NCBI GenBank assembly: GCA_016432525.1
Contig: CP066693.1
Location: 482,732 to 546,731 of the forward strand
Reading direction: 5' to 3'
Length of the DNA: 64,000 nt
DNA from: Candidatus Woesebacteria bacterium
Lineage (GTDB): Bacteria > Patescibacteriota > Microgenomatia > UBA8517
This document shows positions 34,998-64,000 of this stretch, one piece after another. The translations under genes and the position numbers were made by a program. Each line of letters opens with the position of its first letter. Position 1 is the stretch's first letter. A model generated the notes under the pieces. That model saw only the letters and a list, made by a program, of their open reading frames with translations, ran no database searches and was not told the DNA's origin.

Positions 34998-35507
34998 ATG
35001 TGTATGTTTAAAAGGTTTCTTGCTTTTACTCTGCTAATAGCACTTTCTTTAGGGCTAGCTTCTCCAACATTTGCACAAGTTCCTAGCCCTACTCCTACTC
35101 CTAAAATAGAAAATGTAAATTCTTTTGAACTTTTCTGGCCGATGGCTCCAGGTAAAACAATGGCTGACTCATTATATTTTCTTAAATCTTTAAAAGAAAA
35201 AATTAGAGGACTTTTAATTTTTGGTACACCACAAAAAGTAAATTACTCTGTCTATCTTTCCACTAAGCGTATATTGGAAGCTGAAAAACTCTATAACGAC
35301 AAAAATAAGGACCTAGGAAATAAAACAATGGATGAAGCAATAAAAGACCTTAATAAAGCCGTTTCTCAAAACAGTAAAGGAACAGACGAGACAAGTGACA
35401 GGTTAGCTAGACTTGATAAATTTTTAACCTGGTTTACAACAAAAAATTCTGCCGACAAATCTAAAATTCAAGATGCACTAAGTTTAGTGAAAAAACTTCT
35501 AGGATAA
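34998..35507 (+). CDS. Small secreted protein. It has a signal peptide and is a paralog of 41041..41532.
   Basis: Signal peptide LAFTLLIALSLGLASPTFA-QV, then a PSPTPTPK stretch and a helical, Lys-rich body. It shares a segment with 41041..41532 (FGTPQKVNYSVYLSTKRILEAEKL vs FSKTSKVDFYEYLAEKRLAEISYV). Confidence 0.4.
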   Translation: MCMFKRFLAFTLLIALSLGLASPTFAQVPSPTPTPKIENVNSFELFWPMAPGKTMADSLYFLKSLKEKIRGLLIFGTPQKVNYSVYLSTKRILEAEKLYNDKNKDLGNKTMDEAIKDLNKAVSQNSKGTDETSDRLARLDKFLTWFTTKNSADKSKIQDALSLVKKLLG

Positions 35508-41040: not shown

Positions 41041-41532
41041 TTGATGCGCAAATTCCAAAAGATTTTTATTTCATTATTATCAGTTTTGGTACTAGGACTA
41101 ATGATTTCATCTTCTCAAATCTATGCCCAGGAACTTAAATTTGAGGTCAACCATATAGCTAATGGCTTTGAGAAAATAGGAGAAAAGATCACTCTCTTTT
41201 TAAAATTTTCAAAAACTTCAAAGGTTGATTTTTATGAGTATCTCGCAGAGAAACGTTTAGCTGAAATTTCTTATGTTATTGAAGCAAATCAAATAGATTC
41301 TGTCGAGCCAACTGCTTCTAGGTATTCTACATATATTGGAGTACTAACAAATTATGTGGAAGCCAATAAAGTTACAAGTAAAAAAGGCGATCTTGTAAAA
41401 ATGTTTGAAAGACACTCCAAAATTTTAACAAACCTCCAAAGCAAATTTAAGCATGACTCTGGTTGGTGGTTAGCAATACAAAATGACATAAATAACACTA
41501 AAACTTTTTCTGAAAAAATAAAAACTTTATAA
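41041..41532 (+). CDS. Small secreted protein. It has a signal peptide and is a paralog of 34998..35507.
   Basis: Signal peptide ISLLSVLVLGLMISSSQIYA-QE and a helical, Lys-rich body. Confidence 0.4.
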   Translation: MMRKFQKIFISLLSVLVLGLMISSSQIYAQELKFEVNHIANGFEKIGEKITLFLKFSKTSKVDFYEYLAEKRLAEISYVIEANQIDSVEPTASRYSTYIGVLTNYVEANKVTSKKGDLVKMFERHSKILTNLQSKFKHDSGWWLAIQNDINNTKTFSEKIKTL

Positions 41533-46426: not shown

Positions 46427-48508
<2,082 letters not shown>

Positions 48509-48512
<4 letters not shown>

Positions 48513-49264
48513 GCAAAAAAACTCATTTTAAAAAACAAAAAGAATATTTCGAAAAAGATTTATCTTTTTATGAAAACTATGACAAAAGTTTAAATGCTTG
48601 GCGCCTTTCTTATATCAAAAGAATAAAAAAGGCATTACATTATAAATATAAGAAAAAAACAATTGTAGATGTTGGAACTGGTAGCGGCTATGTCGCCATA
48701 GAAATGGCAAAGTTAGACTCGAGTGTTTTAGCAACAGACATCGTTGAATCAACTCTTAAAAATATAATTTTTTACGCTAAAAAGAAAAAGTTAAAAGTTA
48801 AAACTCTTATTTGTCCCGCTGAAAAGATTCCAATTAAAGCAAAAACAGCAGATTTAGTTGTTGCAAATAGTGTCTTAGAACATATTCCAAATGAGTCTGC
48901 TGCAATAATTGAATGGAAAAGAATTACTAAAAATAACGGAAAGATTTTTGTTACGATTCCTTTAAGTTTTAAATATATTTGGCCATTTTTTTGGCTAGTC
49001 AACTATTTATATGATCGTATGCTTGGGCATCTACGACGTTATGATCTAAATTCTCTCCAAAAAAAATTCGGCTTAGAAATCGAACAAGTATACTACACAG
49101 GTCATTTAATTAAATTTTTATGGTTTTTGATATCCAGACCTTTTTTGGGAGGGATTCGTAGTTCTAGTAAAATAGATTATTTTTTCGAAGATCTTGATCA
49201 GAAATTTGAAAATATTCCTTTCGGAGCAAGCAATTTAGTTGTAATATTCAAAAAAGAAAAATAA
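48509..49264 (+). CDS. Class I SAM-dependent methyltransferase.
   Basis: Motif I VDVGTGSGYVAI, then VLATDIV, ADLVVANSVLEHIPNE and NNGKIFVTIP. Confidence 0.7.
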
Positions 49265-49267
49265 TAT

Positions 49268-49981
49268 ATGAAAAATATTTTCAAAAAATTAAGAATTTAC
49301 GGTTTAAAACGTTTTAGTCTATTTCTATTAGGAGAAATGAAATATCTAGTATGGTTTCAAAAGATAAAAAATTCATATAGCCAACTACAAGAAGATATTC
49401 TAATAGATAAAATTTTAGGGTTTAAAAAAAAAGGTTTTTATGTTGACGTTGGAGCCAACGATCCAATTCGCTTTAGTAATACGTTCAGATTCTATAAAAA
49501 AGGATGGAGAGGTATAACAATAGAACCAGATACTCTTTCATTTGAAAAGCTACAAAAAACTAGGCCAAAGGATTTAAATTTGAATTTGGGGGTAGGAACT
49601 AAAAAAAAGACAACTTATTTTTACAAATTTTTTCCTGACACTCTTTCAACTACCTCAAAAAAAAGTTCTGACAAATACGAAAAACAGGGATTTAAAATGT
49701 TAGGAGTAGAAAAAATCAAAATAGAAAAGCTTTCTACCTTACTTAAAAAATTTTGTAAAAGAAATATAGACCTTATGTCTGTTGACACAGAAGGATATGA
49801 TTTAGAGGTTTTAAAAAGCAATAATTGGAAAAAATTCCGCCCTAAAATTTTATGTATTGAAGTTTCTCAAATAAAAGAAAACAAAATTAAAAATTATTTA
49901 GCTAAAGTAGGGTATAGGCAATACTTAAACAATGGCCTAAACTCTATATTTATAGAAAAAAATTATCATAAAACTTTATGA
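49268..49981 (+). CDS. FkbM-family methyltransferase.
   Basis: EDILIDKILGFKKKGFYVDVGANDPIRFSNTFRFYKKGWRGITIEPDT...IDLMSVDTEGYDLEVLKS...ILCIEV matches the FkbM (TIGR01444-type) pattern. Confidence 0.7.
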   Translation: MKNIFKKLRIYGLKRFSLFLLGEMKYLVWFQKIKNSYSQLQEDILIDKILGFKKKGFYVDVGANDPIRFSNTFRFYKKGWRGITIEPDTLSFEKLQKTRPKDLNLNLGVGTKKKTTYFYKFFPDTLSTTSKKSSDKYEKQGFKMLGVEKIKIEKLSTLLKKFCKRNIDLMSVDTEGYDLEVLKSNNWKKFRPKILCIEVSQIKENKIKNYLAKVGYRQYLNNGLNSIFIEKNYHKTL

Positions 49982-51723
49982 AAATAATTGGACTTACATG
50001 TCACTACACGGGAAATCACGATAATTCAGCTGCGCTTTTAATCGATGGCAAAATCGTGTTTGCCGAAAGCGAAGAAAGAATTACAAGAATTAAGCACGAC
50101 AGGCAATTTCCAATTAAATCTATTAAACATAATTTAAAATATAAAAAACTAAAAATCTCTGACATTGACTATTTCGCCTCAGCTTCACCTCCAACCAATC
50201 TCGGAAAGTTACTTTCACATTATTTTAAAGGTTTCACTTACACTTCAACATTAGAATTTTTTCGCTGGACTCTAGGTCGAAGTCTTCAGATGATATCTTC
50301 AAATAGTCAAAATAAAAATTCACATATACCTAATACTTACTATGAAACCAACTTACCAAAAAAGAAGTTAGTTTTCATATCTCATTATCTCGCTCATGCA
50401 GAAACCGCTTACGTCTTTTCAGAAATGGATAAATGCTTAATTGTTGCTTGGGATGGCTATGGTCTCAATGAAGATGGTTCACCTCTCTGCGGAAGTATTT
50501 ATTTGGGTCAAAATGGAGAATTAACACTTTTGGAAGAAATTCCAATATATGCATCTCTTGCTCTTTACTATGGTGCAGTAACCATCGCCCTAGGTTTTAA
50601 ATTAAATGATGGTGAAGGAAAAACAATGGGACTTGCAGTTTATGGGAAAGAAAGTCCTGCAGTAAAAGAGATTAGAGACATCTTTCCTTATTTCGATGGT
50701 AAAAAATGGATTCCTAGAAGTAATTGGTTGGAAGTAAACAGTGTCTCAAGGACTGAATTTTTTAAAAAAACCTCAACTTATAAAAAAATAAAAAAATTAA
50801 TAGATATGTACGGAAATCAACAAATTGCATTTGCAGCACAAAAAATTTTGGAAGTAGAGGCAGAAAAGTTCTTCAGATATTTGGTTAAAAAATATCAGGA
50901 GAAAAATATTGCTTTAGCAGGGGGGATTTTTCTAAATGTGAAATTTAATATGAAACTTCTCGAAAATAAAATTGCAAAAAAACTTTTTATATATCCAAAT
51001 CCAGGGGATGGTGGGGTGGCAGTTGGTGCAGCACTCGCTCTTTATAAAAAGCTAGGTAAAAAAATTCCTGTAGTGGGAATGAATAATGTTTATCTTGGTT
51101 GTGAGTACAATAAAAATGAAATTAAAAAAGAACTTAAAAAATTTAATAAAAAAATTGTATTTATTGATTTGGCTGACAAACTACCAAAAACAATAGCTAG
51201 TCACGTTGCAAATGGCAAGGTGGTCGGTTGGTTTCAGGGAAGAGGAGAATGGGGGCCAAGAGCATTAGGAGCAAGAAGCGTTTTGGCTGATCCAAGATTT
51301 ATTGAAACAAAAGACAGGATTAATTCAAAACTAAAACAAAGAGATTGGTTTATGCCTTTTGCTCCAGCAATATTGGAAGAATTTTCAAAAAAAGTTCTAG
51401 TCCATAATTTTGGAACCCCTTATATGACATTAACTGATGACGTCAAAAAAAATGTCGCCAAAAAAATTCCTGCTGCAATTCATATTGATAACACTGCTAG
51501 ATCGCAAATTGTTAACAAAAAAACAAACCCGCTTTATTGGTCGGTAATCAATGAATTCAGAAAACTAACAGGTATTCCAGTGATTTTAAATACAAGTTTT
51601 AATAAACACGGGCTTCCAATTGTCCATTCACCCAAAGAAGCAATAGAGCATTTAATTTGGGGTTGCGTGGATGAACTAGCAATAGGTCCTTTTTTGGTAA
51701 TCAAAGCCTCTAAAAAGAAATAA
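49978..51723 (+). CDS. Carbamoyltransferase (NodU/CmcH/NovN/TobZ family).
   Basis: The N-terminal Carbam_trans_N pattern is KIIGLTCHYTGNHDNSAALLIDGKIVFAESEERITRIKHD...HYLAHAETAY...VAWDGYG. The C-terminal carbamoyltransferase motifs are GGIFLNVKFN, GDGGVAVGAAL, GRGEWGPRALGARS, RDWFMPFAP and ILNTSFNKHG. Confidence 0.8.
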   Translation: MKIIGLTCHYTGNHDNSAALLIDGKIVFAESEERITRIKHDRQFPIKSIKHNLKYKKLKISDIDYFASASPPTNLGKLLSHYFKGFTYTSTLEFFRWTLGRSLQMISSNSQNKNSHIPNTYYETNLPKKKLVFISHYLAHAETAYVFSEMDKCLIVAWDGYGLNEDGSPLCGSIYLGQNGELTLLEEIPIYASLALYYGAVTIALGFKLNDGEGKTMGLAVYGKESPAVKEIRDIFPYFDGKKWIPRSNWLEVNSVSRTEFFKKTSTYKKIKKLIDMYGNQQIAFAAQKILEVEAEKFFRYLVKKYQEKNIALAGGIFLNVKFNMKLLENKIAKKLFIYPNPGDGGVAVGAALALYKKLGKKIPVVGMNNVYLGCEYNKNEIKKELKKFNKKIVFIDLADKLPKTIASHVANGKVVGWFQGRGEWGPRALGARSVLADPRFIETKDRINSKLKQRDWFMPFAPAILEEFSKKVLVHNFGTPYMTLTDDVKKNVAKKIPAAIHIDNTARSQIVNKKTNPLYWSVINEFRKLTGIPVILNTSFNKHGLPIVHSPKEAIEHLIWGCVDELAIGPFLVIKASKKK

Positions 51724-51747: not shown

Positions 51748-53523
51748 ATGAACGTATTAGGAATTTATAACGCTCACAATGCAACTGCCGTTTTAGTTAA
51801 AGATGGAGTAATAGTGGCTTGTGTTTCTGAAGAAAGATTCACAGGTAAAAAAAATCAATATGGTTTTCCAAAACACGCCATAGATTATTGTATCTCTCAA
51901 GCAAAAATTAAGTCTTCAGATATAGATTTAGTTGTTATCCCTTTTAAATATGGACCTCCTCAACATTCACTTCGAGAAGAAAATCGCGATCTCAAACTGA
52001 ACTTTTTTTTAAACATTTATAAAATCGTATCAGTTGTAAGAAAAGAATGGGGTGAATTGGCTTACAGATACCCAGACCTAATACCAATAGGCAAATGGTC
52101 GTTTAGGACAGCATCTATTATTTTTGAAAAATTCCACATGGCAAGTGAGAGAAAATACGTTGCTGATTATTTAGGAATTTCTGTTAATAAAGTAATAAGC
52201 GTTGATCATCATTTATCGCATGCAGCATCTGTTTATTTTAGTTCACCTTTTAGTGGAGAAAAAACTTTAGTTCTAACTCTTGACGGAGAAGGTGACTTCA
52301 AATGTGCAACAGTTTCAATTTTTGACCAAAATAAATATAAAATTTTAGCCACTTCTGATCGCGAGCATTCTCTCGGATATGTTTATCAAAGATTAACCGA
52401 AGTTTTGGGAATGAAAGCAAATGAACATGAATATAAAGTAATGGGTTTAGCTCCTTACGCAAAAGGTGATGAAATCAATAAAATTTACGACAAGATAAAA
52501 AATATAGTTTATCTAGATCCCAAAAATCGCCTAATTTTTAAATCAAAATTTAATACAGTTGATACAGATAAATTTTTAGAAAGAGAATTAAAAAGAGTAA
52601 GATTCGATATTTTAGCAGCAGCATTTCAAAAATTTACTGAAGACAAGATAGTTGAATGGGTCGATTACGCGGTCAAAAAAACTAAAGCCAAAAAACTACT
52701 CCTTTCCGGTGGGGTATTTATGAACATCAAGGTTAACCAAAAAATTGCAGAATTACCAAGTGTTAAACAAATGTTTGTAATGCCTTCTTGTGGTGATGAA
52801 TCAACTCCAATTGGAGCCGCTTTTTTGGGATATATGAAATTAGGTAAACAAAGTCAACTTAAAAATTCTATTCTTAAAAATTTATATTTTGGACCAGAAT
52901 TTGGAAATAGTGAAGTCGAAAAAATCATCAAATCTAAAAGACTTACTAGGAAGTATAAGGTAATTCGTTCTCGAAACATTGAAAAGACAATTGCAACTCT
53001 TCTAGCAAAGAAAAAAATTATAGCAAGAGCTTCGGGTAGAATGGAATTTGGAGCACGAGCTCTTGGTAATAGATCGATAATGGGTAACCCAACTGACCCT
53101 TATGTAGTAAGAAAAATAAATGACCAAATCAAAGGCCGTGATTTTTGGATGCCTTTTGCTCCAACAATTCTTTGGGAGAGAATGCAAGATTATATTATAA
53201 ATCCCAAAAAGATAGAGTCTCCGTATATGATGATGGGCTTTGTTACAACAGAGCTAGCCAAAAAAGAACTTACTGCAGCACTTCATCAGTATGACTTTAC
53301 CGCAAGGCCACAACTTTTAAAACAAGAAGCAAATCCTAAATACTACAAAATTATAAAAGAATTTGAAAAAATAACAGGAATTGGAGGAATCTTAAATACC
53401 TCATTCAATTTGCATGGTTTTCCAATTGTTCTAGGTCCAGTTGAAGCTATAAACACATTTGAAAACTCTGGACTCGAGCACTTGGCACTCGAAGACTATT
53501 TAATATCCAAAAAAATTTCATAA
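51748..53523 (+). CDS. Carbamoyltransferase (NodU/CmcH family). It is the second tandem copy.
   Basis: NVLGIYNAHNATAVLVKDGVIVACVSEERFTGKKN...HHLSHAASVY...LTLDGEGD, GGVFMNIKVN, SCGDESTPIGAAFLG, GRMEFGARALGNRS, RDFWMPFAP and ILNTSFNLHG. Confidence 0.8.
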   Translation: MNVLGIYNAHNATAVLVKDGVIVACVSEERFTGKKNQYGFPKHAIDYCISQAKIKSSDIDLVVIPFKYGPPQHSLREENRDLKLNFFLNIYKIVSVVRKEWGELAYRYPDLIPIGKWSFRTASIIFEKFHMASERKYVADYLGISVNKVISVDHHLSHAASVYFSSPFSGEKTLVLTLDGEGDFKCATVSIFDQNKYKILATSDREHSLGYVYQRLTEVLGMKANEHEYKVMGLAPYAKGDEINKIYDKIKNIVYLDPKNRLIFKSKFNTVDTDKFLERELKRVRFDILAAAFQKFTEDKIVEWVDYAVKKTKAKKLLLSGGVFMNIKVNQKIAELPSVKQMFVMPSCGDESTPIGAAFLGYMKLGKQSQLKNSILKNLYFGPEFGNSEVEKIIKSKRLTRKYKVIRSRNIEKTIATLLAKKKIIARASGRMEFGARALGNRSIMGNPTDPYVVRKINDQIKGRDFWMPFAPTILWERMQDYIINPKKIESPYMMMGFVTTELAKKELTAALHQYDFTARPQLLKQEANPKYYKIIKEFEKITGIGGILNTSFNLHGFPIVLGPVEAINTFENSGLEHLALEDYLISKKIS

Positions 53524-53526
53524 AAA

Positions 53527-55188
53527 GTGTTTAAGCACCTTACCAAATCTCACATAATTTGGCCATTTTTATTATTAATCCTAACTACACTATTAGTTTT
53601 TGGTAGTGTAACAAAAACATTTTACCAACAGGATGAATGGCATGGGTTGGGAGACGTCTTGTCTCTAGGCTTTAATTCTGTATCTATAACAATAGCAGGG
53701 CCTATTAGCCTTTTATTTGGAGGAGGAAGGCTCTTAAGTAATCTCCTTGTTTACTTCTTTTATAGTCGTTATCCATTTAATCTTTTACCAATTTCCTTGA
53801 CTATTATTTTTTTACACGCCGTGGATTCTATTTTGGTTTATCTATTAGCTTACAAATTTACAAAAAAAGTTATTCCTTCGTTTTTGGGGGCTATTTTCTT
53901 TATTATTAACAGTGTTTCTTCTGGCTCTGTCATCTGGCCAGCATCGGGACTATCTACTCTTCCTTCTATTTTTTTTATTCTCTTATCACTGCTATATTTC
54001 TTAGAGTATTTGGCTAAGAACAAAAAGAGGTTACTTATAATTACGTTTGTTTGTCTTTATGTATCACTTTTTTTTAAAGAAACTGCTGTCCCTTTATTTT
54101 TCTTACTTCCTCTATCATCTTTACTTTTCAAAAAAATCCCTTTTAAAAAATTTATTAAAATTTATTGGATATTTTTCTCTTTCAGTTTTCTGTTGATATT
54201 TTACAGACTTATACAATTTGAAAACATTACTACTAAACAAGACTTGTTTATTACAGGAGCTTCAAACTCGGTTCCTCTAACACTAGTAGTTCGTGCAATA
54301 ATGTATCCACTTACTTCTTTCTCTTTAATCTATATTCCTTCTGAAACGATTTTGACCATAACAAAACATATCACTTGGGTATATTACCCGTTTTTTCCAA
54401 AAGATCTATATGACCTAGTAGCGCAAACAGCTATTTTGGATATCCTAGCTTTATTTGCTTCTTTTTTTATCTTCACTCTTCTTTATTTCTTATTTAAGAA
54501 AGCTAAGTCCGTTACAAAAAAATATATAATCTTTGTAACTATCTTAATTTTGCTATCTTATCTTCCTTATATAATAATAAGCAAAAGCTATTCATATTTA
54601 GAGTCGCGTTACTACTACACTGCTGCTATCGGAGCAGGTCTTCTTATTGCATTATGTGTCAAAAGAATTTTAGATCTAAAAAAAACAAAATTATTCGCTT
54701 TACTGTTTTTGCTAATACCTTTTTATTATCTGCATCTAAAAATTATTAGCAGTCAAATCGATATTCAAGTATCAAGAAGTCAAGAACGTCTACAAATTTT
54801 AAATAATTTTTTAAAAGAAACGCCATTTTTGGACAAAAAAACAATCTTTTATATTTCAGGAAATCAAGTACACTATGTTTCAGAAGGAAATTATCTACCC
54901 ATGCAGCAGGGAATGGGCTATACACTTTTGGTCTGGTATGAAGCACATCAAAAAGCTCCTGCAGAGTTGTTGCCTTTTATAAGGGATCACTATCTTTGGG
55001 AACTAATAGGAGGCCAAGGATATAAAGAAATAAATGGATTTGGTTTTGGATACTTTTGGGATTTAGAAAAACTGAAAGAAGTAGTTTTTAAAAACAAACT
55101 TACAAAGGATAATATTCAGGCATTTTATTATGATTCAGAAAAAGAGGAATTAAAAAACATTAAAGATGAAGTACTCAAAAAACTATGA
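53527..55188 (+). CDS. Polytopic membrane protein (hypothetical, possibly GT-C-like).
   Basis: 553 aa with about 12 TM helices. The early loop has YQQDEWHGLGDV. It has a C-terminal soluble region of about 150 aa. Confidence 0.4.
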   Translation: MFKHLTKSHIIWPFLLLILTTLLVFGSVTKTFYQQDEWHGLGDVLSLGFNSVSITIAGPISLLFGGGRLLSNLLVYFFYSRYPFNLLPISLTIIFLHAVDSILVYLLAYKFTKKVIPSFLGAIFFIINSVSSGSVIWPASGLSTLPSIFFILLSLLYFLEYLAKNKKRLLIITFVCLYVSLFFKETAVPLFFLLPLSSLLFKKIPFKKFIKIYWIFFSFSFLLIFYRLIQFENITTKQDLFITGASNSVPLTLVVRAIMYPLTSFSLIYIPSETILTITKHITWVYYPFFPKDLYDLVAQTAILDILALFASFFIFTLLYFLFKKAKSVTKKYIIFVTILILLSYLPYIIISKSYSYLESRYYYTAAIGAGLLIALCVKRILDLKKTKLFALLFLLIPFYYLHLKIISSQIDIQVSRSQERLQILNNFLKETPFLDKKTIFYISGNQVHYVSEGNYLPMQQGMGYTLLVWYEAHQKAPAELLPFIRDHYLWELIGGQGYKEINGFGFGYFWDLEKLKEVVFKNKLTKDNIQAFYYDSEKEELKNIKDEVLKKL

Positions 55189-56254
55189 CATTGCAATTAT
55201 TGGAGCAGGTTTCTATGGTTGCGCTTTAGCTCTTTTTTTTGCAAACAAAAATTTGAAAGTAGCTCTCTTAGAAAAAGAAAAAGATTTACTAGAAAGAGCA
55301 TCTTATAAAAACCAAGCTAGAATCCACAATGGTTATCATTATCCAAGACATTTTATTACAGCTCTTCGATCTCACTTAAATTATGAAAAATTTATCAAAG
55401 ACTTCGATTCCGCCGTTTACAAAGATTTTAAGCAATACTACGCAATTGCTAAAATTTCCTCAAAAACAAACGCACGTCAATTCTTAAAATTCTGTGAGCA
55501 TGTTGGTTCCTTTATAAAACCTGCTTCACAAGTAATTAAAAATTATTTTAATAATCGACTGGTTGAAGATGTTTTTGAAGTTGAAGAAAGAGTTTTCGAT
55601 GCAGGTAATATGAGAAAAATTTTAAAAAAAGAGTTATTTAAAAAAGTGAAAGTTTTTTACGATTGTGAAGTTGCAAAAATAGAAAGACACAAAGATAAAA
55701 TAATCCTCCTCACAAAAAATTCAAAAACTTTTACAGCCACTCAGGTTTACAACTGCACATACTCACAAATTAACAAAATTCTATCTCAATCAGGTTTAAA
55801 CATTTTGCCTTTTAAACATGAATATATTGAAATGCCATTAGTCAAAGTACCAGATGAATTCTCCAAGATAGCTGTAACAATTTTGGACGGCCCTTTTTTT
55901 GGTTTTTTGCCATTTCCAGATACCAAAAACCACTCCCTATGGCATGTTCGATACTCAATACATACCAACTGGACTGACCCACAAGAAGATAATTTAGAAG
56001 ATAAACTTCTAGATTATTCCAACAAATCTAATTATCAATTCATGTACAAAGATGCAAAACGATATATCCCAATCTTAAAAGATATGAAATTTGAACAGTC
56101 ACTTTTTGAAACAAAAACAGTTCTTTTGGATAAAGAAGAAAACGATGGAAGGCCAATTCTTTATAAAAAGAATTATGAAATACCAGGGTTCCATGTAGTT
56201 ATGGGCGGAAAAATTGATAATATCTACGATATCATTTACGAAATCGAGCATTGA
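55166..56254 (+). CDS. FAD/NAD(P)-binding oxidoreductase (Rossmann-fold).
   Basis: The N-terminal beta-alpha-beta dinucleotide motif is YDIAIIGAGFYGCALALFFANKNLKVALLEKE. No specific subfamily was assigned. Its 3' end overlaps the convergent argF-like gene by 23 nt. Confidence 0.5.
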   Translation: MKYSKNYDIAIIGAGFYGCALALFFANKNLKVALLEKEKDLLERASYKNQARIHNGYHYPRHFITALRSHLNYEKFIKDFDSAVYKDFKQYYAIAKISSKTNARQFLKFCEHVGSFIKPASQVIKNYFNNRLVEDVFEVEERVFDAGNMRKILKKELFKKVKVFYDCEVAKIERHKDKIILLTKNSKTFTATQVYNCTYSQINKILSQSGLNILPFKHEYIEMPLVKVPDEFSKIAVTILDGPFFGFLPFPDTKNHSLWHVRYSIHTNWTDPQEDNLEDKLLDYSNKSNYQFMYKDAKRYIPILKDMKFEQSLFETKTVLLDKEENDGRPILYKKNYEIPGFHVVMGGKIDNIYDIIYEIEH

Positions 56255-57149
56255 GAAGAAATATGATTAGTGCTTTTTGCGCATGAAGCCGATTTTCAGC
56301 TTCTTGAAAAACAAAAGATTTATTTCCATCAATAATTTCACTTGTTACTTCATTTCCTCGATAAGCAGGCAAACAATGCAAAAAGATAGCATTATTTTTA
56401 GCTTCCTTCATTAACTTTTTGTTAACTTGGTAAGGTTTAAAAATTTTAAGTCTCTTTTCCTTTTCTGCTTCATCACCCATACTAATCCAAGTATCAGTAA
56501 TAACTACATCTGCATTTTTAACTGCTTTAATTGGATCAGTTAATTGAATCGCTTTAGATTTTGCCAATATTTTTTTGTTCATCTCATATCCTTTGGGTGC
56601 TGCACATTTAAATTTCATTTCAAGAATTTGACATGCAAGTGCAAAAGAGTGCACCACATTATTTTCGCAATCCCCGACATATGAAATATTCAAGCCTTTA
56701 AGTTTCTTTTTTACCTCTCTTATCGTCATCAGATCAGCCAAAATTTGGCAAGGATGTTCCATATCAGAAAGTCCGTTAATAACTGGAACGCTTGAATTTT
56801 TTGCAAGTTCCTCAACAATTTTATGGCTAAAAGTTCTAGCCATAATAATATCTGCCATTCTGCTGGTCACTTTGGCAATATCAGTAACTGATTCTCTTTT
56901 TCCCATGCTTATGTCTGTTGGTCCCAGATAAATTGCATGTCCTCCAAGTTGAGTCATTCCAATCTCAAATGAAAGACGGGTACGAAGAGATGGTTTTTCG
57001 TAAATCATAACCAAAGTTTTACCGTCTAGAATTTTTTTATTTTTACCTTTTGTTTTTAATTCACGCTTCAATTTATCTGCCAAATCCAAAACTTTAACAA
57101 TTTCCTTTGAAGAAAGATCGCTTATTGAAACAAAATGCCTTAATTTCAT
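56232..57149 (-). CDS. argF: Ornithine carbamoyltransferase (OTC family, ArgF/ArcB-like).
   Basis: The carbamoyl-phosphate binding motif is SLRTRLSFE (the STRTR equivalent). The ornithine-binding motifs are HPCQ, DTWISMG and FLHCLPA (HCLP is diagnostic of OTC versus ATCase), plus FQEAENRLHAQKA. Confidence 0.85.
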   Translation of the reverse strand: MKLRHFVSISDLSSKEIVKVLDLADKLKRELKTKGKNKKILDGKTLVMIYEKPSLRTRLSFEIGMTQLGGHAIYLGPTDISMGKRESVTDIAKVTSRMADIIMARTFSHKIVEELAKNSSVPVINGLSDMEHPCQILADLMTIREVKKKLKGLNISYVGDCENNVVHSFALACQILEMKFKCAAPKGYEMNKKILAKSKAIQLTDPIKAVKNADVVITDTWISMGDEAEKEKRLKIFKPYQVNKKLMKEAKNNAIFLHCLPAYRGNEVTSEIIDGNKSFVFQEAENRLHAQKALIIFLLNARFRK

Positions 57150-57173: not shown

Positions 57174-57950
57174 TCAAGGGTTGTAAAAACCTAATACAAT
57201 TTTAAAAATATTTAATAAATCATTTATTTTTTTCCAACCAACTATTTTTGTTGGAACTTCTCCCTTAGGATAATTTCGTGTAGTCGGAATCTCTTTTGAT
57301 TTAAGCCCTAATCTGTTAGCACGAGTCGTCATGTAAAATAATAATTCATATCTTTGAAATATATCTCTGAAGGGTTTAACTCCTGGATGAAGTAGATAAT
57401 CTTTACTGTACGCACGAAATGCAAGTGGGGTATCGGTATACCATTTTCCAGCTGCCAGGCTTAAAACCGGTGATATTACAAACCTGTTAAAAAAAATCCT
57501 GTCTGAAGGGGTATTTTTATGTTTTCCTCCTTTCAGAAATCTAGAAGCTTGTGCATAATCACATCCTTCATCTAATGCCTTTATAAATAAAGGAATTGCT
57601 GATACATCATCTTTATTATTACCATCAATTGTAATAATACCCTCATATTTTTGTTTCAAAGCCCAAGCAAGTCCTGCTCGCATCTGAACTGATTGACCTC
57701 TTGGAGTATTTATAACTGCTCGTAATCCTTGTCTTTTCAGAAACGTCTTATTCGTTGAGCCATCAGTGCTTCCTCCATCAACTAATATGATATCAACCAT
57801 TTTGGAATATTTTTTCATTTTCTGGAGTTGATCTTTAATTCTCTTACCTTCATTTAAAACTGGAGTAATAAGGGAATATTTATTTCTTTTTTTAAAAAAT
57901 TCGTTTATTTTATATTCTGGCACTTGCCAAGATTTAGGATCTAATTTCAT
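57174..57950 (-). CDS. GT2 family glycosyltransferase.
   Basis: YSLITPVLNEGKRIKDQLQKM...IILVDGGSTDGS...AGLAWA...IITIDGNNKDD...QASRF. Confidence 0.6.
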   Translation of the reverse strand: MKLDPKSWQVPEYKINEFFKKRNKYSLITPVLNEGKRIKDQLQKMKKYSKMVDIILVDGGSTDGSTNKTFLKRQGLRAVINTPRGQSVQMRAGLAWALKQKYEGIITIDGNNKDDVSAIPLFIKALDEGCDYAQASRFLKGGKHKNTPSDRIFFNRFVISPVLSLAAGKWYTDTPLAFRAYSKDYLLHPGVKPFRDIFQRYELLFYMTTRANRLGLKSKEIPTTRNYPKGEVPTKIVGWKKINDLLNIFKIVLGFYNP

Positions 57951-57965
57951 ATATCAATTCTACCT

Positions 57966-59384
57966 TTATTCTTGTACTAAATGAAGATGTTTACCACTCA
58001 GTGTCTCGGCTAGTAGTTGAACTCCATCACTACCAACTTTTTGCTGCATTATCCTCTTATCCTTGAATGAAGAAACTTTGTTGGGGTGCAACTCATTTAA
58101 TTTTTGTAATCCAGCATACCAAAATGGAACTTCAACTTGCTTTACTTTTAAGCCTTTATGTAATGCCAATACGACACCATAAACTTGTGCGTTCATCCAA
58201 CTATCTAGTATTTTTGGATCTATCTGTTCTCCTCCGGCAGGTTTAAATCTCCTTGTAAATAGTTCAACCACCGCTGGATTGTTTTTGAATGCAATCAATC
58301 CTGAATAAAGATCCAAATCTTCTTCCCCGTCTTTTAATATCCCATTGTTTCGTAGATGCTCATTCATTTGACGATTTGTTTCGTTTTCTATAGTAAATCC
58401 GTAATCTGGATAAGATGCTTCAAATTCTTGTGATCTTCTCTTGCCAACGACTACGTCTGCTTGAGACTGAAGAAGTAATTCAACGTGTGCGGGTATATGT
58501 GTAATTGAGTCAACTTTCTCAGGTTCTATTCTAAAAATGTACTTAACTCCATTGATTTCCGATGCTGCTTCTATCGCTGCCTTTTTTTGTTTGGCAAAGT
58601 TAGACATATCTTTATCATTAACAATAGTGACATTTCTGTATATCTTCAGCTCTTCTAAAAAAGGATTTGAACTTCCAGTATCTGCGATTATAACTCTATA
58701 TCCATGGTGTGCTGCTTCACGAATTAAACCTAAAGCCAGATACCCCCTAGTTCTTGTCTCGTTCGACAAATCAATATTTCCTGGCGTCCAGTCTTTATAT
58801 TGAGTTGCAATACAAACCGCTACTTCATCTGGGTTGAATATTTCTTTTACGTCAGGATTTTTAATAGTTCTTCCTTCTCCTGTTTTGATTCCTCTTGCTG
58901 TTAGAGTTGCTTTCTCGTCTCCTAAATTAGTTGTTTGATGAATTGTGTACGGAGGGATGACAACTTCTTCGCCTGGATTTCTAAGCAGAACGGCTCGCTC
59001 TGTTCTTGTTAATGGATAAAGCAAATCTGCTCTTACCTTTACTCCTCCACTTTCTTTAGGTACACCAATTGTTTCTTCCATTCCTTCGTGAAGTTCTGCT
59101 GTTAACTCTTCTCTTGGACTTAGATCAAATTCTTGAGAAAAAATTTGCTCTCCAATTTGCGCTTCCTTGTTCAAAGGAGCGATCTCTCTTTTGTTTGCGG
59201 AAGCTACTTTATCAATAAGAGAAAAATTTTTCCAAATTGACTGCTCAATGATTTCCTTAGTTCTAGCAGCACTCTCTCTTATTCCTGCTATATTTTCTTG
59301 AAGTCTCCCTGTTCTTTCTATACTCATGGCAGTATGGTAAATGTTATTCCAAAACTTGTCAATGAGCGTATACTTCATTAACAA
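57966..59384 (-). CDS. Hypothetical protein, possibly a divergent GT-A-fold nucleotide-sugar transferase-like enzyme. Its base composition is atypical for the window.
   Basis: 472-aa ORF whose GC content and codon usage are visibly higher than the surrounding AT-rich genes. One segment (KYIFRIEPEKVD...ADVVVGKRRSQEF) loosely resembles the GT2 DxD...DVVxGSR region, but with EPE in place of DxD. No TM helices. The start is uncertain (26-nt overlap with the upstream gene). Confidence 0.35.
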   Translation of the reverse strand: MLMKYTLIDKFWNNIYHTAMSIERTGRLQENIAGIRESAARTKEIIEQSIWKNFSLIDKVASANKREIAPLNKEAQIGEQIFSQEFDLSPREELTAELHEGMEETIGVPKESGGVKVRADLLYPLTRTERAVLLRNPGEEVVIPPYTIHQTTNLGDEKATLTARGIKTGEGRTIKNPDVKEIFNPDEVAVCIATQYKDWTPGNIDLSNETRTRGYLALGLIREAAHHGYRVIIADTGSSNPFLEELKIYRNVTIVNDKDMSNFAKQKKAAIEAASEINGVKYIFRIEPEKVDSITHIPAHVELLLQSQADVVVGKRRSQEFEASYPDYGFTIENETNRQMNEHLRNNGILKDGEEDLDLYSGLIAFKNNPAVVELFTRRFKPAGGEQIDPKILDSWMNAQVYGVVLALHKGLKVKQVEVPFWYAGLQKLNELHPNKVSSFKDKRIMQQKVGSDGVQLLAETLSGKHLHLVQE

Positions 59385-60174
59385 ACTTTAATGTTTTTTC
59401 TATTTGTTCCAAATGTTTAATATCTGGACCAAGAGGCATCTCTATAGATACCCAGTCCTTATAACCTGAATTTTTTAAGGCATTTGATACTTTTTTGTGA
59501 TCTGTTTCCTCAGTCGGAATTGGTTTTAAGCCTGGTTCGCTTATGTGATAATGGTGAGTGTAAGGAAGCGCTTGAATAATTGTTTTAAGATAATTTTCTT
59601 GATTTATAGTCATGGTGCTTGTGTCCAAATGCACACAAAAGTTTGAATTATTTACCTTTTTAACTAATTTAATTGCTTCATCTGTTGTATTTATAAAATC
59701 AGTTCCATAGAGTGGAGGATTTGGTTCAATTCCGAAGTAAATATTACGTTTTCTTGCAATTTTAGAAATTTTCCCAAAAAACTCAATAGAGATTTTTTCT
59801 ACCTCTTTTTTAGATTTACCATTTGTTACTCTATTTTTTGGAGATCCAAAAACCATGGCCTTTGCACCAAGTTTTACTGAAAGCTCAATCATTTTAGATA
59901 AATAGCTAAAAGTTTCGTTTTTTGCTTTTCTATCAGCGAAAATCTGAAGTTCAGGGTGACCAAAAAGTAGGGAAGTAGTAGCAACTATTTCAATCCCATT
60001 TTTTTTCCAAAAATTCTTACACTTATTAATTTTAGCGTCAGTTACTTCAACTGGATCTTGCCAAATTTTTGATGCAGCTATTTCAATGGCATTTATATTA
60101 TATTTTTGAAGTAATTTTAAAACTTTGCTATCTTCTGAGTGGTCCCATGCTAAATTTGAAATTGCAATTTTCAT
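59359..60174 (-). CDS. Sugar phosphate isomerase/epimerase (xylose-isomerase-like TIM barrel).
   Basis: IAISNLAWDHS...NAIEIAASKIW...GAKAMVFGSP...YFGIEPNP...CVHLDTSTM matches the AP_endonuc_2 / xylose isomerase-like TIM barrel motifs. Confidence 0.6.
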   Translation of the reverse strand: MKIAISNLAWDHSEDSKVLKLLQKYNINAIEIAASKIWQDPVEVTDAKINKCKNFWKKNGIEIVATTSLLFGHPELQIFADRKAKNETFSYLSKMIELSVKLGAKAMVFGSPKNRVTNGKSKKEVEKISIEFFGKISKIARKRNIYFGIEPNPPLYGTDFINTTDEAIKLVKKVNNSNFCVHLDTSTMTINQENYLKTIIQALPYTHHYHISEPGLKPIPTEETDHKKVSNALKNSGYKDWVSIEMPLGPDIKHLEQIEKTLKFVNEVYAH

Positions 60175-60950
60175 TTCCCAAGTTTTTTTCTTTCATTGAC
60201 TATAAACTCTTTAATTTCTTTAAGTATTTGGGATCTGTGATAAATATATTCATCTTTTGATCCATACAATTTTCCATATTTAGTTCTAAAATCAAAAACC
60301 AAAGGTGGTTTTTCAGTAATATTTTTAAAATTTACATTAAGTGAATATTTTGCAATTTGGCAGGCTGTTACAGACTCTGTCGCAAAATTGATAAGTTTTA
60401 TTTTATTTTTAATTGCAATTTGAATGTCTCTCCATATATTTTTTAAGTGATAAAACTGCATTAAGGTATCTTTATGCGTAAAATCCAATGCGTTGTCAAA
60501 AATTAAATCATAAATAAAATTCTTTTTTAAACCATCACCGTATAATTGAGGACACCTGATAATTGTCACGTCAGAAAAATTCCTTTTAATAAATAACTCC
60601 ATCTTATATCTATGTTTACCATAGGCCTCTTTTAAGTCCAAAAATTTAATTTTTGTATCTTCATTTATTCCTACTTTGTTTGGATAAACATCAACAGTAG
60701 AAATCAAAATAAACTTCTTTGTATTTACTTTCGAAAGATTATCTAAAAGTTTTTTAATCCCTTTCCAATCATCTTTTGGTTCTTGATTTGCCTTCCATCT
60801 TAAAGCAGAAGTTGCTGCACTAACAATTAAGTCATATTTTTTGCCTTTAATATCTTCAATATTTTTCGAATTATATAAATCGTCAAAATGATACTGTGAA
60901 AGCAAATTCGACCCCACAAATCCCGTGTAACCTATTAGCGCTGATTTCAT
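60171..60950 (-). CDS. NAD(P)-dependent sugar epimerase/reductase-like protein (short, RmlD-like).
   Basis: N-terminal Rossmann motif ALIGYTGFVGSNL. The 259-aa size and ISTVDVYP pattern resemble dTDP-4-dehydrorhamnose reductase-like proteins. It overlaps both neighbours by 4 nt. Confidence 0.45.
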   Translation of the reverse strand: MKSALIGYTGFVGSNLLSQYHFDDLYNSKNIEDIKGKKYDLIVSAATSALRWKANQEPKDDWKGIKKLLDNLSKVNTKKFILISTVDVYPNKVGINEDTKIKFLDLKEAYGKHRYKMELFIKRNFSDVTIIRCPQLYGDGLKKNFIYDLIFDNALDFTHKDTLMQFYHLKNIWRDIQIAIKNKIKLINFATESVTACQIAKYSLNVNFKNITEKPPLVFDFRTKYGKLYGSKDEYIYHRSQILKEIKEFIVNERKKLGK

Positions 60951-61945
60951 ACTATATTAAGAGTCTTTCTTTTAGGCAGAATAGTAGATCTATTAATTTC
61001 CTCCGAAACAAAATAAAAAGGCTCATCTCTTGATTCAATGAGAATTCTAATTACATACTCCGATATTAAGGTAAGTAGAGAAAACAATATAAAAAACAAT
61101 GTTCCAATTACAGTCGAAGTACTAATCCATCCTTGGGGTGCTAAATGTTTCATTCCAAATACTAGTATTAATATTACAACCCCTAAAACATACAAAAGAA
61201 ACAGGAAACTTAAAAATAATCCAAGGAAACTGACTATTCGAATAGGTTTAAAAGAATTTGAAATTATTGTGTCAGCTGTACCCAAAACTACCTCACTTAT
61301 TTTCTGTTTACTTAACTTATATTTATATGTTCGAATTTGTCTGTAGTAAATGATTTGCTTTTTAAAACCTACCAAATAATTTATGTAACTAAAATGTCTA
61401 CTCTTGCGTCTAGTACTAACTATTGAATTTATCACTTTTCTATTTAGTGCCATAGTAAAATTAAACCCATGACGAAAGCCATGGCTAGAAATTTTCTCAG
61501 TTAGCCAAAGAAAAATTTTACTTACAAAATCGTAACTAACAATATCTTTATTGCATTTTGCAACGACTACATCATTACCTTCCTCAATTTTATCTAATAA
61601 GCTAACTACGATTTCAACAGAATCTGTGTAAAGGTTAAAAAGTATAGCGCTATCCCCAATACAGTTATCTAGTCCAGCAGTCAAGGCTATCTCATTGTCA
61701 TACTTTTTTGAAAGAACCAAAATTCTTGTGTAAGGAATGATATTTTTTAATTTTTTTATTTTATCGATAGTATTATCGGAAGAGTTATTATCAACAATCA
61801 AAATCTCATAATTAGTTCTAAGTTTGGATAAAATTTTTTTAATTTCCTTAAGTCTCTTTTCAATAATATCCTCATCGTTATTTGTTACAGCTATCAAAGA
61901 AATTATCTTGTCACTTAACCTTAATTTCCTAGACTTTTTGTCCAT
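60947..61945 (-). CDS. GT2 polyprenol-phosphate glycosyltransferase (GtrB-like) with a C-terminal 2-TM anchor.
   Basis: ISLIAVTNNDEDII...ILIVDNNSSDNT...LTAGLDNCIGDSAILF, then two C-terminal TM helices (IRIVSFLGLFLSFLFLLYVLGVVILILVFG; VIGTLFFILFSLLTLISEYVI). The ATG was confirmed at 61943-61945 (reverse complement). Confidence 0.6.
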   Translation of the reverse strand: MDKKSRKLRLSDKIISLIAVTNNDEDIIEKRLKEIKKILSKLRTNYEILIVDNNSSDNTIDKIKKLKNIIPYTRILVLSKKYDNEIALTAGLDNCIGDSAILFNLYTDSVEIVVSLLDKIEEGNDVVVAKCNKDIVSYDFVSKIFLWLTEKISSHGFRHGFNFTMALNRKVINSIVSTRRKSRHFSYINYLVGFKKQIIYYRQIRTYKYKLSKQKISEVVLGTADTIISNSFKPIRIVSFLGLFLSFLFLLYVLGVVILILVFGMKHLAPQGWISTSTVIGTLFFILFSLLTLISEYVIRILIESRDEPFYFVSEEINRSTILPKRKTLNIV

Positions 61946-61965: not shown

Positions 61966-64000
61966 ATGAGATTAACAGCAAGAGCCATAAGTTTCATTAA
62001 AAAAAATAAAATACTTTTTTTAGTTATTCTAATCGCCATAATCCTTAGATTTGTAGGATTGATGCCAAACATCCTTCACGCGGACGAATCTTATGTACAA
62101 GACCATTCTTGGGATTTGGTTAAAAATTTTATTGTTAGTCGCGACATAAATCCCCATACCTTTAAATATGGAACACTAATGTTTTATTTTCAGACAATTG
62201 GGGCTTTTCCAGTTTTAGTTGGAACCTATCTTTTAGAAATCGCAAATACACTAGTTTCGTCTACATTCACAGCCAAATGGTTAAGATTTGACTTATTTTA
62301 TGGCGAAGCAATACGTAAATATGTTATTCCCTTGGTAACAGTAGGAAGAGCAGAAACCGCTTTTTTTGGAGTAGCAAGTGTAATAGTTGTTTATTTAATT
62401 GGAAAAAAAATGTTCAACAAAAGAGTAGGAATTATCTCAGCTCTTTTCCTGGCAATAGCTCCGCTTCATACTCGGGACTCCCATTATATAACAACCGATG
62501 TTTTATCTGTACTAACCATTCTCCTCGCATTTTTAAGTTTTCTATATCTTTATAAGACCAAAAAATTAAAATGGTTTATTACATCAGGTATTTTGATGGG
62601 AATTTCTGTAACAGTCAGGTATTATCCAATTGCTATTTTTGCTTATCTTTCAGCGATTCTTTATAGCTTCGAAAAACAAAAAAAATGGTTTCGCAATATT
62701 TTGATTAGCTTCTTTTTCGTCTTGGTGGGGGTGTTTATCGGTTTACCATTCCTATTTTTGGATTCTCAAGGGCCCAAACTTTTTATTTCAGATTTACAAA
62801 AATACGCTTTGCCTTGGTACAGCACTCCAATCACCAATTATATTTTTTCTATCTTTGTAAGTATTATTTCGAAAGGTAAGGAAAGTCTCCCCAGTATTCA
62901 CCTTTTATATTCAATGCCGCATTCTTTCAGACCTGTTCATGCAAGTTGGATATTTTTTAACGCTTATGGAATACTTCCCACAATTTTAGCCATATTTGCA
63001 ATGTTTACATTAGCGATTAAATCCTTCAAAAAATTTATATTATTAGCATCTATTCCACTTATCAACTTCTTTTATATAAGCTATCTCATTCCAGCCACAT
63101 ACGAAAGGTTAATTATTCCAACATTGCCATTTCTAGCAATATTTACAGCAATCTGTTTAGAAAACTTATATCTTTTTTTAAAAGAACATTGGAGCAAAAA
63201 AACGACCAAGATAGCATTTCTAGTCTCAATTTTGTTGGTTAGCATATTGCCATTTTCAAAAGCCCTAGAAGCAAGTATTACCTGTAGTCAGGAAACAATT
63301 CAGAATCAAAGCTATGATTGGGTAAATAAAAGTATTCCTGAAAATGTAAATATTGGATATTTAACCATGGTAAGTATTCCTCCTAAAAAATTCGGCTGGG
63401 TTGCTCTCGAACCTGGACAAAAATTATCACTCGAAGAAGCTATGATTAGAAAAAACGACTATGCTTTCATAAACGCATCAAGACTCGACTATAATACATA
63501 TAACTATTTCAACAGTTTTTTTATTCCACCAGATAAAATATTCGAAAATTCCTATTATTCTTTGGTGATATCAGAATACGAATCAAGAGCAAAGGTTTTA
63601 GGTAGAGTTCAAAAACCATGGATGTGTGACGTCTCACGAATTTATTATTATCAGCTACCTCAATTAGCAAAAGAAGCAACAAAACTTATTAAAAATTTTA
63701 ATTTTGATTCCTCTAAAGATCTTGAATCTTGGCATATTACAATTCCAGATAACAGTGGTAAAGCAAATATAAATTTAACATCCGCAACAGGTAAACAAAA
63801 AAACGGATCGCTTATATATTTTCAAGATTCTTTTGCCTATACCGCACCAAGAATAGCAAGTAATAATCAAAAAATCTCTCCAAACAAAACTTACACTTTT
63901 TCTTTTTGGTCAAAAGTAGATAAAAATTCTGACGATCAATCTCCAACCGTAATTGCAAGGATAGATTTTTACAGCAGTATTAAGCCAACTGGATTGGAAA
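61966..64000 (+). CDS. PMT_2/ArnT-like GT-C membrane glycosyltransferase with a C-terminal soluble beta-sandwich-like domain. It is 3'-partial and runs off the window.
   Basis: Not in the supplied ORF track, because no stop codon falls in the window. I translated it by hand from ATG 61966 (MRLTARAISFIKKNKILFLVILIAIILRFVGLMPNILHADESYVQDHSWDLV...) and found no stop through 63999. It has the DE loop motif, about 12 TM segments and then a soluble region (SQETIQNQSYDWVNKSIPENVNIGYL...TYTFSFWSKVDKNSDDQSPTVIARIDFY). Confidence 0.6.
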   Translation, partial: MRLTARAISFIKKNKILFLVILIAIILRFVGLMPNILHADESYVQDHSWDLVKNFIVSRDINPHTFKYGTLMFYFQTIGAFPVLVGTYLLEIANTLVSSTFTAKWLRFDLFYGEAIRKYVIPLVTVGRAETAFFGVASVIVVYLIGKKMFNKRVGIISALFLAIAPLHTRDSHYITTDVLSVLTILLAFLSFLYLYKTKKLKWFITSGILMGISVTVRYYPIAIFAYLSAILYSFEKQKKWFRNILISFFFVLVGVFIGLPFLFLDSQGPKLFISDLQKYALPWYSTPITNYIFSIFVSIISKGKESLPSIHLLYSMPHSFRPVHASWIFFNAYGILPTILAIFAMFTLAIKSFKKFILLASIPLINFFYISYLIPATYERLIIPTLPFLAIFTAICLENLYLFLKEHWSKKTTKIAFLVSILLVSILPFSKALEASITCSQETIQNQSYDWVNKSIPENVNIGYLTMVSIPPKKFGWVALEPGQKLSLEEAMIRKNDYAFINASRLDYNTYNYFNSFFIPPDKIFENSYYSLVISEYESRAKVLGRVQKPWMCDVSRIYYYQLPQLAKEATKLIKNFNFDSSKDLESWHITIPDNSGKANINLTSATGKQKNGSLIYFQDSFAYTAPRIASNNQKISPNKTYTFSFWSKVDKNSDDQSPTVIARIDFYSSIKPTGLE

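Follow-up and report, generated by a model that had tools for sequence, protein, structure and literature searches.

What does a lone ornithine carbamoyltransferase (OTC) gene do in a glycan locus? The question is raised by a stretch of 64,000 nucleotides from a Candidatus Woesebacteria bacterium (contig CP066693.1, positions 482,732 to 546,731; the whole of this stretch is called the window below), in which an OTC gene at 56232..57149 on the minus strand lies close to genes for two O-carbamoyltransferases. We find that an association of OTC genes with glycan O-carbamoyltransferase genes is real in Microgenomates, recurrent but optional, and this recurrent pairing suggests that the OTC supplies carbamoyl phosphate for glycan decoration. 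Patescibacteria have a minimal metabolism and depend on their hosts. For the Candidate Phyla Radiation (CPR) the locus offers a concrete hypothesis on carbamoyl-phosphate economy, the principle of which has a proven precedent in Thermococcus.

Identity of the enzyme

The gene runs from an ATG start to a TGA stop, encodes 305 amino acids and is the last of a minus-strand array; its G+C content, 32.9%, matches that of the window, 31.5%. Its product scores 395 bits with TIGR00658 (cut-off 280.85) and 427.9 bits with PRK00779 (cut-off 306), above the equivalog and subfamily thresholds respectively, and matches the Pfam families OTCace_N (E 8.5e-53) and OTCace (E 2.7e-56). The closest solved structure is that of the Pyrococcus furiosus OTC (1a1s/1pvv, E 1.3e-90), which aligns end to end. 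The strong assignment to the OTC family made in an earlier note on this DNA is borne out by all of these matches.

Transcarbamylases are defined by the motifs Fx(K/E/Q...)xSxRT, HPxQ and HxLP, and the hallmarks of OTCases are a Lys in the first of these, DxxxSMG in the 240's loop, an Asn and, usually, a Cys in HxLP (PMC4581275). Each motif quoted in the earlier note is present, with SLRTR at residues 54-58, HPCQ at 132-135, DTWISMG at 219-225 and FLHCLPA at 256-262. The first motif reads YEKPSLRT (49-57), with Tyr for Phe and with Lys51 kept, while HCLP at 258-261 carries the Cys typical of OTCases. N164 aligns with the NN of 1a1s and corresponds to N167 of E. coli, and the ornithine-binding 240's loop (D219-TWI-S223-M224-G225) is invariant in the closest 120 homologues. 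Both second-substrate regions that had been singled out for inspection, DxxxSMG and HCLP, are of the ornithine type. SLRTR was considered as a mark of altered function and ruled out: the family motif is SxRT (PMC4581275), and SLRTR is an ordinary variant because its Leu, invariant in the closest 120 homologues, fills the 'x' and because SLRTR is also found in 27 of 110 unrelated, non-CPR OTC loci among the matches listed.

Could the protein be a diverged transcarbamylase whose carbamoyl acceptor is not free ornithine but, for example, an amino sugar or a glycan-linked amine, or could citrulline or ornithine be supplied as a substituent of the glycan? The first of these had been raised in the earlier note. 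The glycan context of the gene speaks for such a role, the family does include enzymes with non-ornithine substrates (PMC4581275), and transcarbamylases outside the assigned subfamilies occur in related loci (L009 10939-11922; surveyed loci are cited by L numbers throughout). The candidate subfamilies fail in turn. Putrescine carbamoyltransferase (PTC) is recognised by TIGR04384, a Gln in FxQxSxRT, (Y/W)(G/W)(V/L/I)x in the 240's loop and ~20 extra C-terminal residues; the window protein scores 328.8 bits against a TIGR04384 cut-off of 500, shows Lys in place of Gln as the third residue of that motif, carries DxxxSMG and is only 305 residues long. The knotted transcarbamylases (AOTC/SOTC/YgeW), which are longer and have a proline-rich loop besides the knot, were rejected on scores of 146.6 bits for AOTC (cut-off 288) and 49.9 for YgeW (cut-off 500), and a chain of 305 residues could accommodate neither knot insertions nor the PTC C-terminal helix. 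Nor did a Pfam scan of the cassette give an ATP-grasp or ligase gene able to attach an amino acid. Because the OTC thresholds are passed, those for PTC, AOTC and YgeW failed, and the OTC motifs kept (the ornithine-binding Lys, the Asn and the D, S and M of DxxxSMG, with the Cys of HxLP also present), a non-ornithine role is unsupported and we regard it as very improbable.

By its sequence, then, the gene encodes a genuine OTC (citrulline + Pi <-> ornithine + carbamoyl phosphate), and it belongs to a Patescibacteria (Microgenomates/Woesebacteria) clade. With the short anabolic-type OTCs (ArgF, TIGR00658/PRK00779; P. furiosus 1a1s/1pvv) it has in common a two-domain fold family, the motifs SxRT, HPxQ, DxxxSMG and HCLP and a length of ~305-315 residues. 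It differs from them in having SLRTR for STRTR, and its gene does not adjoin arg genes but sits in a glycan locus. As an enzyme it is a standard OTC-family protein and hence nothing new.

Recurrent pairing with glycan O-carbamoyltransferases

The two carbamoyltransferase genes of the window lie in tandem on the plus strand (CT1, 49978..51723, 581 residues; CT2, 51748..53523, 591 residues). They are paralogues, and both combine Carbam_trans_N with Carbam_trans_C, an architecture shared with the TobZ, NovN, GdmN, NodU and CmcH systems; among solved structures CT2 matches TobZ (3ver, E 1.6e-61) and also NovN and GdmN. From the end of the nearer gene (53523) to the OTC stop codon (56232) is 2.7 kb, and coordinates and Pfam assignments agree with the earlier note in placing the OTC inside a glycan locus at this distance from sugar carbamoyltransferases. 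That note had called the two proteins NodU-type consumers of carbamoyl phosphate. They are O-carbamoyltransferases of the TobZ type, while NodU orthology falls away, since CT1 and CT2 score 147 and 109 bits with the NodU equivalog NF041651 against a cut-off of 1000; they are better described as TobZ-like members of the Carbam_trans family. TobZ-type O-carbamoyltransferases consume carbamoyl phosphate and ATP. Given the shared architecture and the TobZ alignment, CT1 and CT2 should use the same substrates.

The pairing was surveyed across all loci retrieved by two collection scans (species-representative genomes and metagenomes) and by first contig look-ups. A locus was assigned to the CPR clade if its OTC was at least 56% identical to the window OTC and had at least 8 kb of flank, and a carbamoyltransferase was counted if it lay within 10 kb; the control loci carried less similar, mostly non-CPR OTCs (46-54% identity) among the matches listed in species-representative genomes. 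A carbamoyltransferase was found near the OTC in 6 of 25 CPR-clade loci and in none of 76 non-CPR loci (among the matches listed; Fisher p = 1.4e-4), the latter being a weak background because such carbamoyltransferases are rare in ordinary bacterial genomes. The surveyed loci linked to a carbamoyltransferase occupy four separate branches of a neighbour-joining tree.

An OTC and a TobZ-type carbamoyltransferase occur together in five distinct gene arrangements, two of which are tight operons (L014, L176). The first is the cassette of the window, in which the OTC stands at a convergent junction, and three further genomes have it too, both convergent arrays included: L002/L003 (GCA_040960095.1; OTC 72% identical to that of the window), L007/L008 (81%) and L012/L013 (GCA_964357925.1; 70%). 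The remaining cassette proteins of these genomes share 48-83% identity with their counterparts in the window. In all four genomes the OTC gene adjoins a family 2 glycosyltransferase (GT2) gene with a short gap or overlap; in the window this gene (57174..57950, minus strand, 258 residues, Pfam Glycos_transf_2) lies directly upstream of the OTC gene with a 24-nt gap, and in L007/L008 the GT2 stop and the OTC start overlap by 4 nt. On its other side the OTC gene converges on a DAO-family FAD-dependent oxidoreductase gene (55166..56254, plus strand, 362 residues, Pfam DAO E 1.6e-19), the last of the plus-strand array. The 3' ends overlap by 23 nt in the window (56232..56254), as had been noted before, by 14 nt in L007 and by 24 nt in L012, and are 2 nt apart in L002.

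The other arrangements are each different. In L014 the OTC stop and the carbamoyltransferase start overlap by 4 nt within a glycan locus, and in L176, which was found apart from the survey, a tight same-strand operon comprises genes for an F5/8-domain protein, OTC, a GT2 and a carbamoyltransferase. L011 has a carbamoyltransferase 6.1 kb downstream of the OTC. In L009/L010 the order is carbamoyltransferase, GT4, argH, argG, OTC and a second transcarbamylase, with the carbamoyltransferase 4.4 kb from the OTC. No argG or argH was found in the window or in the syntenic L002, L007 and L012, and tblastn found no carbamoyl-phosphate producer within 10 kb of the OTC in any carbamoyltransferase-linked locus.

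A possible role in carbamoyl-phosphate supply

Carbamoyl phosphate is the metabolite common to OTC, aspartate carbamoyltransferase (ATCase) and the TobZ-type enzymes. We propose, tentatively and with confidence short of even, that the window OTC phosphorolyses citrulline and so feeds carbamoyl phosphate to the two O-carbamoyltransferases. Citrulline, either scavenged or derived from arginine, would react with Pi on the OTC to give ornithine and carbamoyl phosphate; the ATP-dependent O-carbamoyltransferases would take up the latter to decorate a surface glycan, and their ATP-driven consumption would pull the unfavourable OTC reaction forward. We infer the functional link, the direction of the reaction and the source of citrulline from the identity of the enzyme, the identity of its neighbours and their recurrent pairing.

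The idea that an OTC supplies carbamoyl phosphate is reasonable because there are enzymes that do so. Among the recognised sources of carbamoyl phosphate, catabolic transcarbamylases form a third class, which is normally coupled to carbamate kinase (PMC6022934). In Thermococcus kodakarensis, which is without carbamoyl-phosphate synthetase (CPS), deletion of arcB (the OTC gene) or arcE causes pyrimidine auxotrophy, and deletion of arcB also abolishes hydrogenase-dependent growth, HypF-dependent maturation needing ArcB; deletion of carbamate kinase is without these effects (PMC13260591). Since the consumers are impaired by the arcB and arcE deletions and not by that of carbamate kinase, OTC is what provides carbamoyl phosphate for anabolism in this organism (PMC13260591). 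There the enzyme works by citrulline phosphorolysis for anabolic consumers and needs no coupling to carbamate kinase (PMC13260591), whereas the consumers proposed for the window are glycan O-carbamoyltransferases. Consumers of the kind that an ArcB-type role calls for are at hand in the two TobZ-type carbamoyltransferases 2.7 kb away, and they are paired with an OTC in all five arrangements. HypF shares the Kae1/TsaD-like domain family with TobZ.

The TobZ, NovN, GdmN, NodU and CmcH systems, to our knowledge, draw on the general cellular pool of carbamoyl phosphate and have no dedicated transcarbamylase. In the literature that we found, none is reported for any O-carbamoylation system. Here, in contrast, an OTC gene accompanies the carbamoyltransferases in the window and in at least seven related loci.

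A neighbouring carbamate kinase gene (arcC) is the usual discriminator of a catabolic OTC (PMC6022934). The arginine deiminase pathway, arcABC(D), occurs in Patescibacteria, for example in Saccharibacteria TM7x, and its OTC likewise makes carbamoyl phosphate from citrulline, but there the OTC gene shares a four-gene operon with those for arginine deiminase, carbamate kinase and an antiporter (PMC8764695), none of which lies near the window OTC. The Pfam tables of the window's open reading frames (ORFs) hold no ArgG/ArgH, arginine deiminase, antiporter or AA_kinase families, and searching the window by tblastn for E. coli CarA, CarB and carbamate kinase gave no match, in agreement with the earlier statement that it has no other gene related to arginine. 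By tblastn, carbamate kinase was near the OTC in 0 of 53 CPR-clade loci among the matches listed, and neither carbamate kinase nor CPS was found near window-type OTCs; the same search detected 8 control loci with carbamate kinase and 8 with carAB. No arginine deiminase or antiporter families turned up among the neighbours scanned with Pfam. An arcB-type context was rejected on these grounds, carbamate kinase being present in neither the window nor the 53 CPR-clade loci. An arc context conserved among relatives, which the earlier note had named among the findings that would overturn its reading, is not borne out by the same count alongside positive controls, and the flanks of L002 hold glycan genes alone for 10 kb on each side.

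The same clade in pyrimidine and arginine loci

Relatives of the window OTC also stand at the head of pyrimidine operons. In L110 (8620-14006) an HCLP-type OTC is followed by pyrB (TIGR00670 321 bits), pyrC, pyrD, a small 92-aa ORF, pyrE and pyrF. The OTC-pyrB-pyrC-pyrD core is found in L105 and L107, in partial form in L126 and with an HDMP-type OTC in L111, and L115 further encodes an aspartate ammonia-lyase together with a fumarate-reductase/aspartate-oxidase-like flavoprotein. Around these loci lie genes for thymidylate kinase, ribonucleotide reductase, phosphoribosyl pyrophosphate (PRPP) synthase and serine hydroxymethyltransferase (SHMT), and no carAB was found in them by tblastn. In the pyr operons of other bacteria, carAB-type genes sit where the OTC sits here. 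In these pyrBCDEF operons the OTC occupies the place of a carbamoyl-phosphate supplier.

It is conceivable, if on the unlikely side, that a Microgenomates lineage recruited OTC as a general carbamoyl-phosphate generator, feeding glycan O-carbamoyltransferases in some genomes and pyrBCDEF in others. The starting material would be citrulline, either scavenged or made from arginine of the host; its phosphorolysis would give carbamoyl phosphate for ATP-driven consumers. If so, the persistence of a lone OTC in genomes with little amino-acid biosynthesis would be explained, surface-glycan chemistry and pyrimidine synthesis would both be tied to host citrulline or arginine, and the carbamoyl groups of the surface glycan would be host-derived. 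Such a system would be a bacterial equivalent of the ArcB route, extending a route so far proven in Thermococcus alone, and would include the first transcarbamylase dedicated to glycan decoration. The literature on OTC or arginine in Woesebacteria and other CPR yielded only the work on arginine deiminase in Saccharibacteria and nothing on OTC in glycan loci. The pairing of OTC with glycan O-carbamoyltransferases and the OTC-headed pyr operons lacking carAB are both real, and neither is in the literature retrieved.

A second type of OTC within the clade has HD[LM]P in place of HCLP and keeps DxxxSMG; it makes up 38 of the 120 closest homologues (loci L009, L014, L015, L016, L102, L104, L109, L111, L112, L122, L123, L125 and L130). 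It usually lies beside argG/argH and once beside CarA (L130). An Asp at the position of the HxLP Cys has been noted in diaminopropionate and diaminobutyrate transcarbamylases (PMC4581275).

These loci bear on the possibility that the OTC, working anabolically, and the O-carbamoyltransferases are co-consumers of a pool made by CPS or by a carbamate kinase-like CPS, and that their genes are clustered for co-regulation or channelling. L009 joins argH-argG-OTC and a carbamoyltransferase in one locus, the OTCs of L009 and L014 are of the HD[LM]P type otherwise seen with argG/argH and in L130 with CarA, and in Pyrococcus carbamoyl phosphate is channelled from carbamate kinase to OTC or ATCase (PMC6022934). 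Such an arrangement would, however, cluster consumers without a producer, to no obvious benefit: none of the carbamoyltransferase-linked loci has a producer of carbamoyl phosphate within 10 kb, and the window, L002, L007 and L012 are free of argG/argH. We think it improbable.

Directly after the OTC, three loci have a 327-aa transcarbamylase (L009 10939-11922, L125 10942-11925 and L177 1145-1963). It is below all NCBIfam thresholds (AOTC 259.5 < 288, OTC 257.5 < 306, YgeW 237 < 453), its motifs are STRT, HPFQ and HCLP, and its 240's loop reads KSWGPL and not DxxxSMG. In L125 it precedes pyrB, and L177 has an OTC together with this other transcarbamylase and no carbamoyltransferase.

Points against a supply role and the variable junction

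Several observations weigh against citrulline phosphorolysis in the service of the O-carbamoyltransferases, in addition to the weak background offered by the non-CPR control. The equilibrium of the OTC reaction lies strongly on the citrulline side (PMC6022934). The OTC and the carbamoyltransferases of the window are on opposite strands and so are not co-transcribed. Some ten relatives with 56-66% identity, the majority HD[LM]P-type, adjoin argG and/or argH, which is an anabolic context, and the family thus includes normal biosynthetic OTCs; the carbamoyltransferase-linked L009 and L014 are themselves of this type. Some relatives are accompanied by CPS (CarA in L130, CarAB in L133) and CarA is common in Patescibacteria. 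CPS, carbamate kinase, arginine deiminase (ADI)/ArcE and argG/argH may lie elsewhere in the ~0.92-Mb genome. With the CPR CarA of L130 as query, none of the 120 best matches (down to ~64% identity) was on the window's contig or on other contigs with an OTC-carbamoyltransferase pairing, which is a weak negative.

The cassette also exists without the OTC. Homologues of CT2 are abundant in Microgenomates, and three carbamoyltransferase-centred loci were examined. Two of them, L178 (CT2 70% identity) and L179 (62%), carry the entire cassette, in which carbamoyltransferase, membrane-like protein and DAO genes converge on those for GT2, TIM barrel, SDR (short-chain dehydrogenase/reductase) and GT2, and have no OTC; its place at the junction is taken by GtrA in L178 and by an F5/8-domain gene, GtrA and a homologue of the window's 472-aa ORF in L179. 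The third, L180 (Daviesbacteria), is also without OTC. Among the genomes with the cassette and no OTC close by is GCA_964394855.1. Because complete cassettes occur without it, the OTC is an optional occupant of a variable junction and not an obligatory part of the module.

A set of genes recurs with or without the OTC (L002, L007, L178, L179): a GT2 with a hydrophobic tail, an SDR, a TIM barrel, a GT2, a DAO protein and a ~550-aa protein, located in the window at 53527-56254 on the plus strand and 57174-61945 on the minus strand. L178 also has, at 327-1619, an Orn/DAP/Arg decarboxylase gene (PF02784/PF00278, 430 residues) in the glycan locus whose cassette lacks an OTC.

An optional occupant might simply be parked there. 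The OTC could be a housekeeping enzyme serving the metabolism of arginine or of carbamoyl phosphate in general, while argG/argH and a source of carbamoyl phosphate would be encoded elsewhere. Its position would then reflect only that glycan loci, and this junction among them, gather accessory genes in these small genomes. The variable junctions of L178 and L179 fit this picture. The OTC contexts of relatives are diverse (pyr, arg, glycan and tRNA-synthetase genes) and include neighbouring argG/argH and CarA. The glycan genes of the window's contig occupy at least 64 kb of ~917 kb, about 7% of its 0.92 Mb, and chance placement is not negligible in a glycan locus so large. A consensus-based promoter and terminator scan of 54.5-62.6 kb found fewer sites than in shuffled controls, so that it is uninformative on transcription units. 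On the other side stand the five arrangements of OTC with a carbamoyltransferase, two of them overlapping or tight same-strand operons (L014, L176), and the GT2-OTC adjacency kept in four genomes. By our rough estimate, moreover, the region within 10 kb of one carbamoyltransferase locus makes up ~2.6% of a 0.92-Mb genome, and the observed 6 of 25 is well above this. A merely positional placement is a serious possibility, though one that we doubt; it would leave an ordinary argF-type gene in an unusual neighbourhood.

The surrounding glycan locus

In the window, Pfam scans covered 50 of the 53 long ORFs, ten of which had no Pfam match, and the other three (47352-49981) were assigned by homology. 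Apart from two DUF5667 proteins, the families around the OTC were all of glycan type: about eleven GT2 proteins, four GT1/GT4 proteins with a fifth by homology, nine PMT_2/YfhO proteins of the GT-C type, two flippases of the Polysacc_synt family, methyltransferases, epimerases, one polysaccharide deacetylase and the two carbamoyltransferases. Homology also identified a partial PMT gene at 62002-63990. No tRNA or Rfam features were found in the window.

The plus-strand array that ends at the junction includes genes for an NAD epimerase/dehydratase (46427-47380, from Pfam), a GT1 glycosyltransferase (47352-48512), an S-adenosylmethionine (SAM) methyltransferase (48509-49264) and an FkbM-type Methyltransf_21 protein (49268-49981), the last three being assigned through 46-59% identity to Pfam-annotated relatives in L002, L007, L012 and L178. 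CT1 and CT2 follow, and after them comes a very hydrophobic protein of 553 residues without a Pfam match (53527..55188, plus strand), which, judged by eye from its hydrophobicity, is probably an integral membrane protein. It directly follows the carbamoyltransferases in L002, L007, L012, L178 and L179, at 43-49% identity. The FAD oxidoreductase that closes the array has a weak PDB match and is kept in the same five loci at 50-63% identity.

The minus-strand array, which converges on it, reads GT2, epimerase-like SDR, TIM barrel, 472-aa ORF, GT2 and OTC. Its first gene encodes a GT2 with a hydrophobic C-terminal segment (60947-61945, Pfam Glycos_transf_2), followed by a short epimerase-like SDR (60171-60950, Pfam Epimerase) and a xylose-isomerase-like TIM barrel (59359-60174, Pfam AP_endonuc_2), all on the minus strand. 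The order of these three (59359..61945) is the same in L002, L007, L178 and L179. Between the TIM-barrel gene and the GT2 gene next to the OTC lies the 472-aa ORF (57966..59384, minus strand), which has a TTG start and no Pfam match. It is a variable element of the cassette, absent from L002, represented by ORFs of 176 and 250 residues in L007 and by a 306-aa homologue (44% identity) at the junction of L179. The combination of an oxidase and a short SDR with GT2 and GT-C proteins is reminiscent of DprE1/DprE2-type epimerisation of lipid-linked sugars.

About ten paralogous membrane glycosyltransferases of the GT-C type (PMT/PMT_2, YfhO) are spread over 8213-44605 and 62002-63990, and two small DUF5667 proteins are encoded at 34998-35507 and 41041-41532. 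Among the surveyed loci, L014, L015 and L052 (CAYSZS010000006.1, CAYSAP010000013.1 and CAYMRP010000024.1) bear the label 'uncultured Gammaproteobacteria'. Their OTCs share 58-61% identity with the Woesebacteria protein, and in L014 the G+C content is 34.6% and the glycan genes are CPR-like; the labels are probably wrong.

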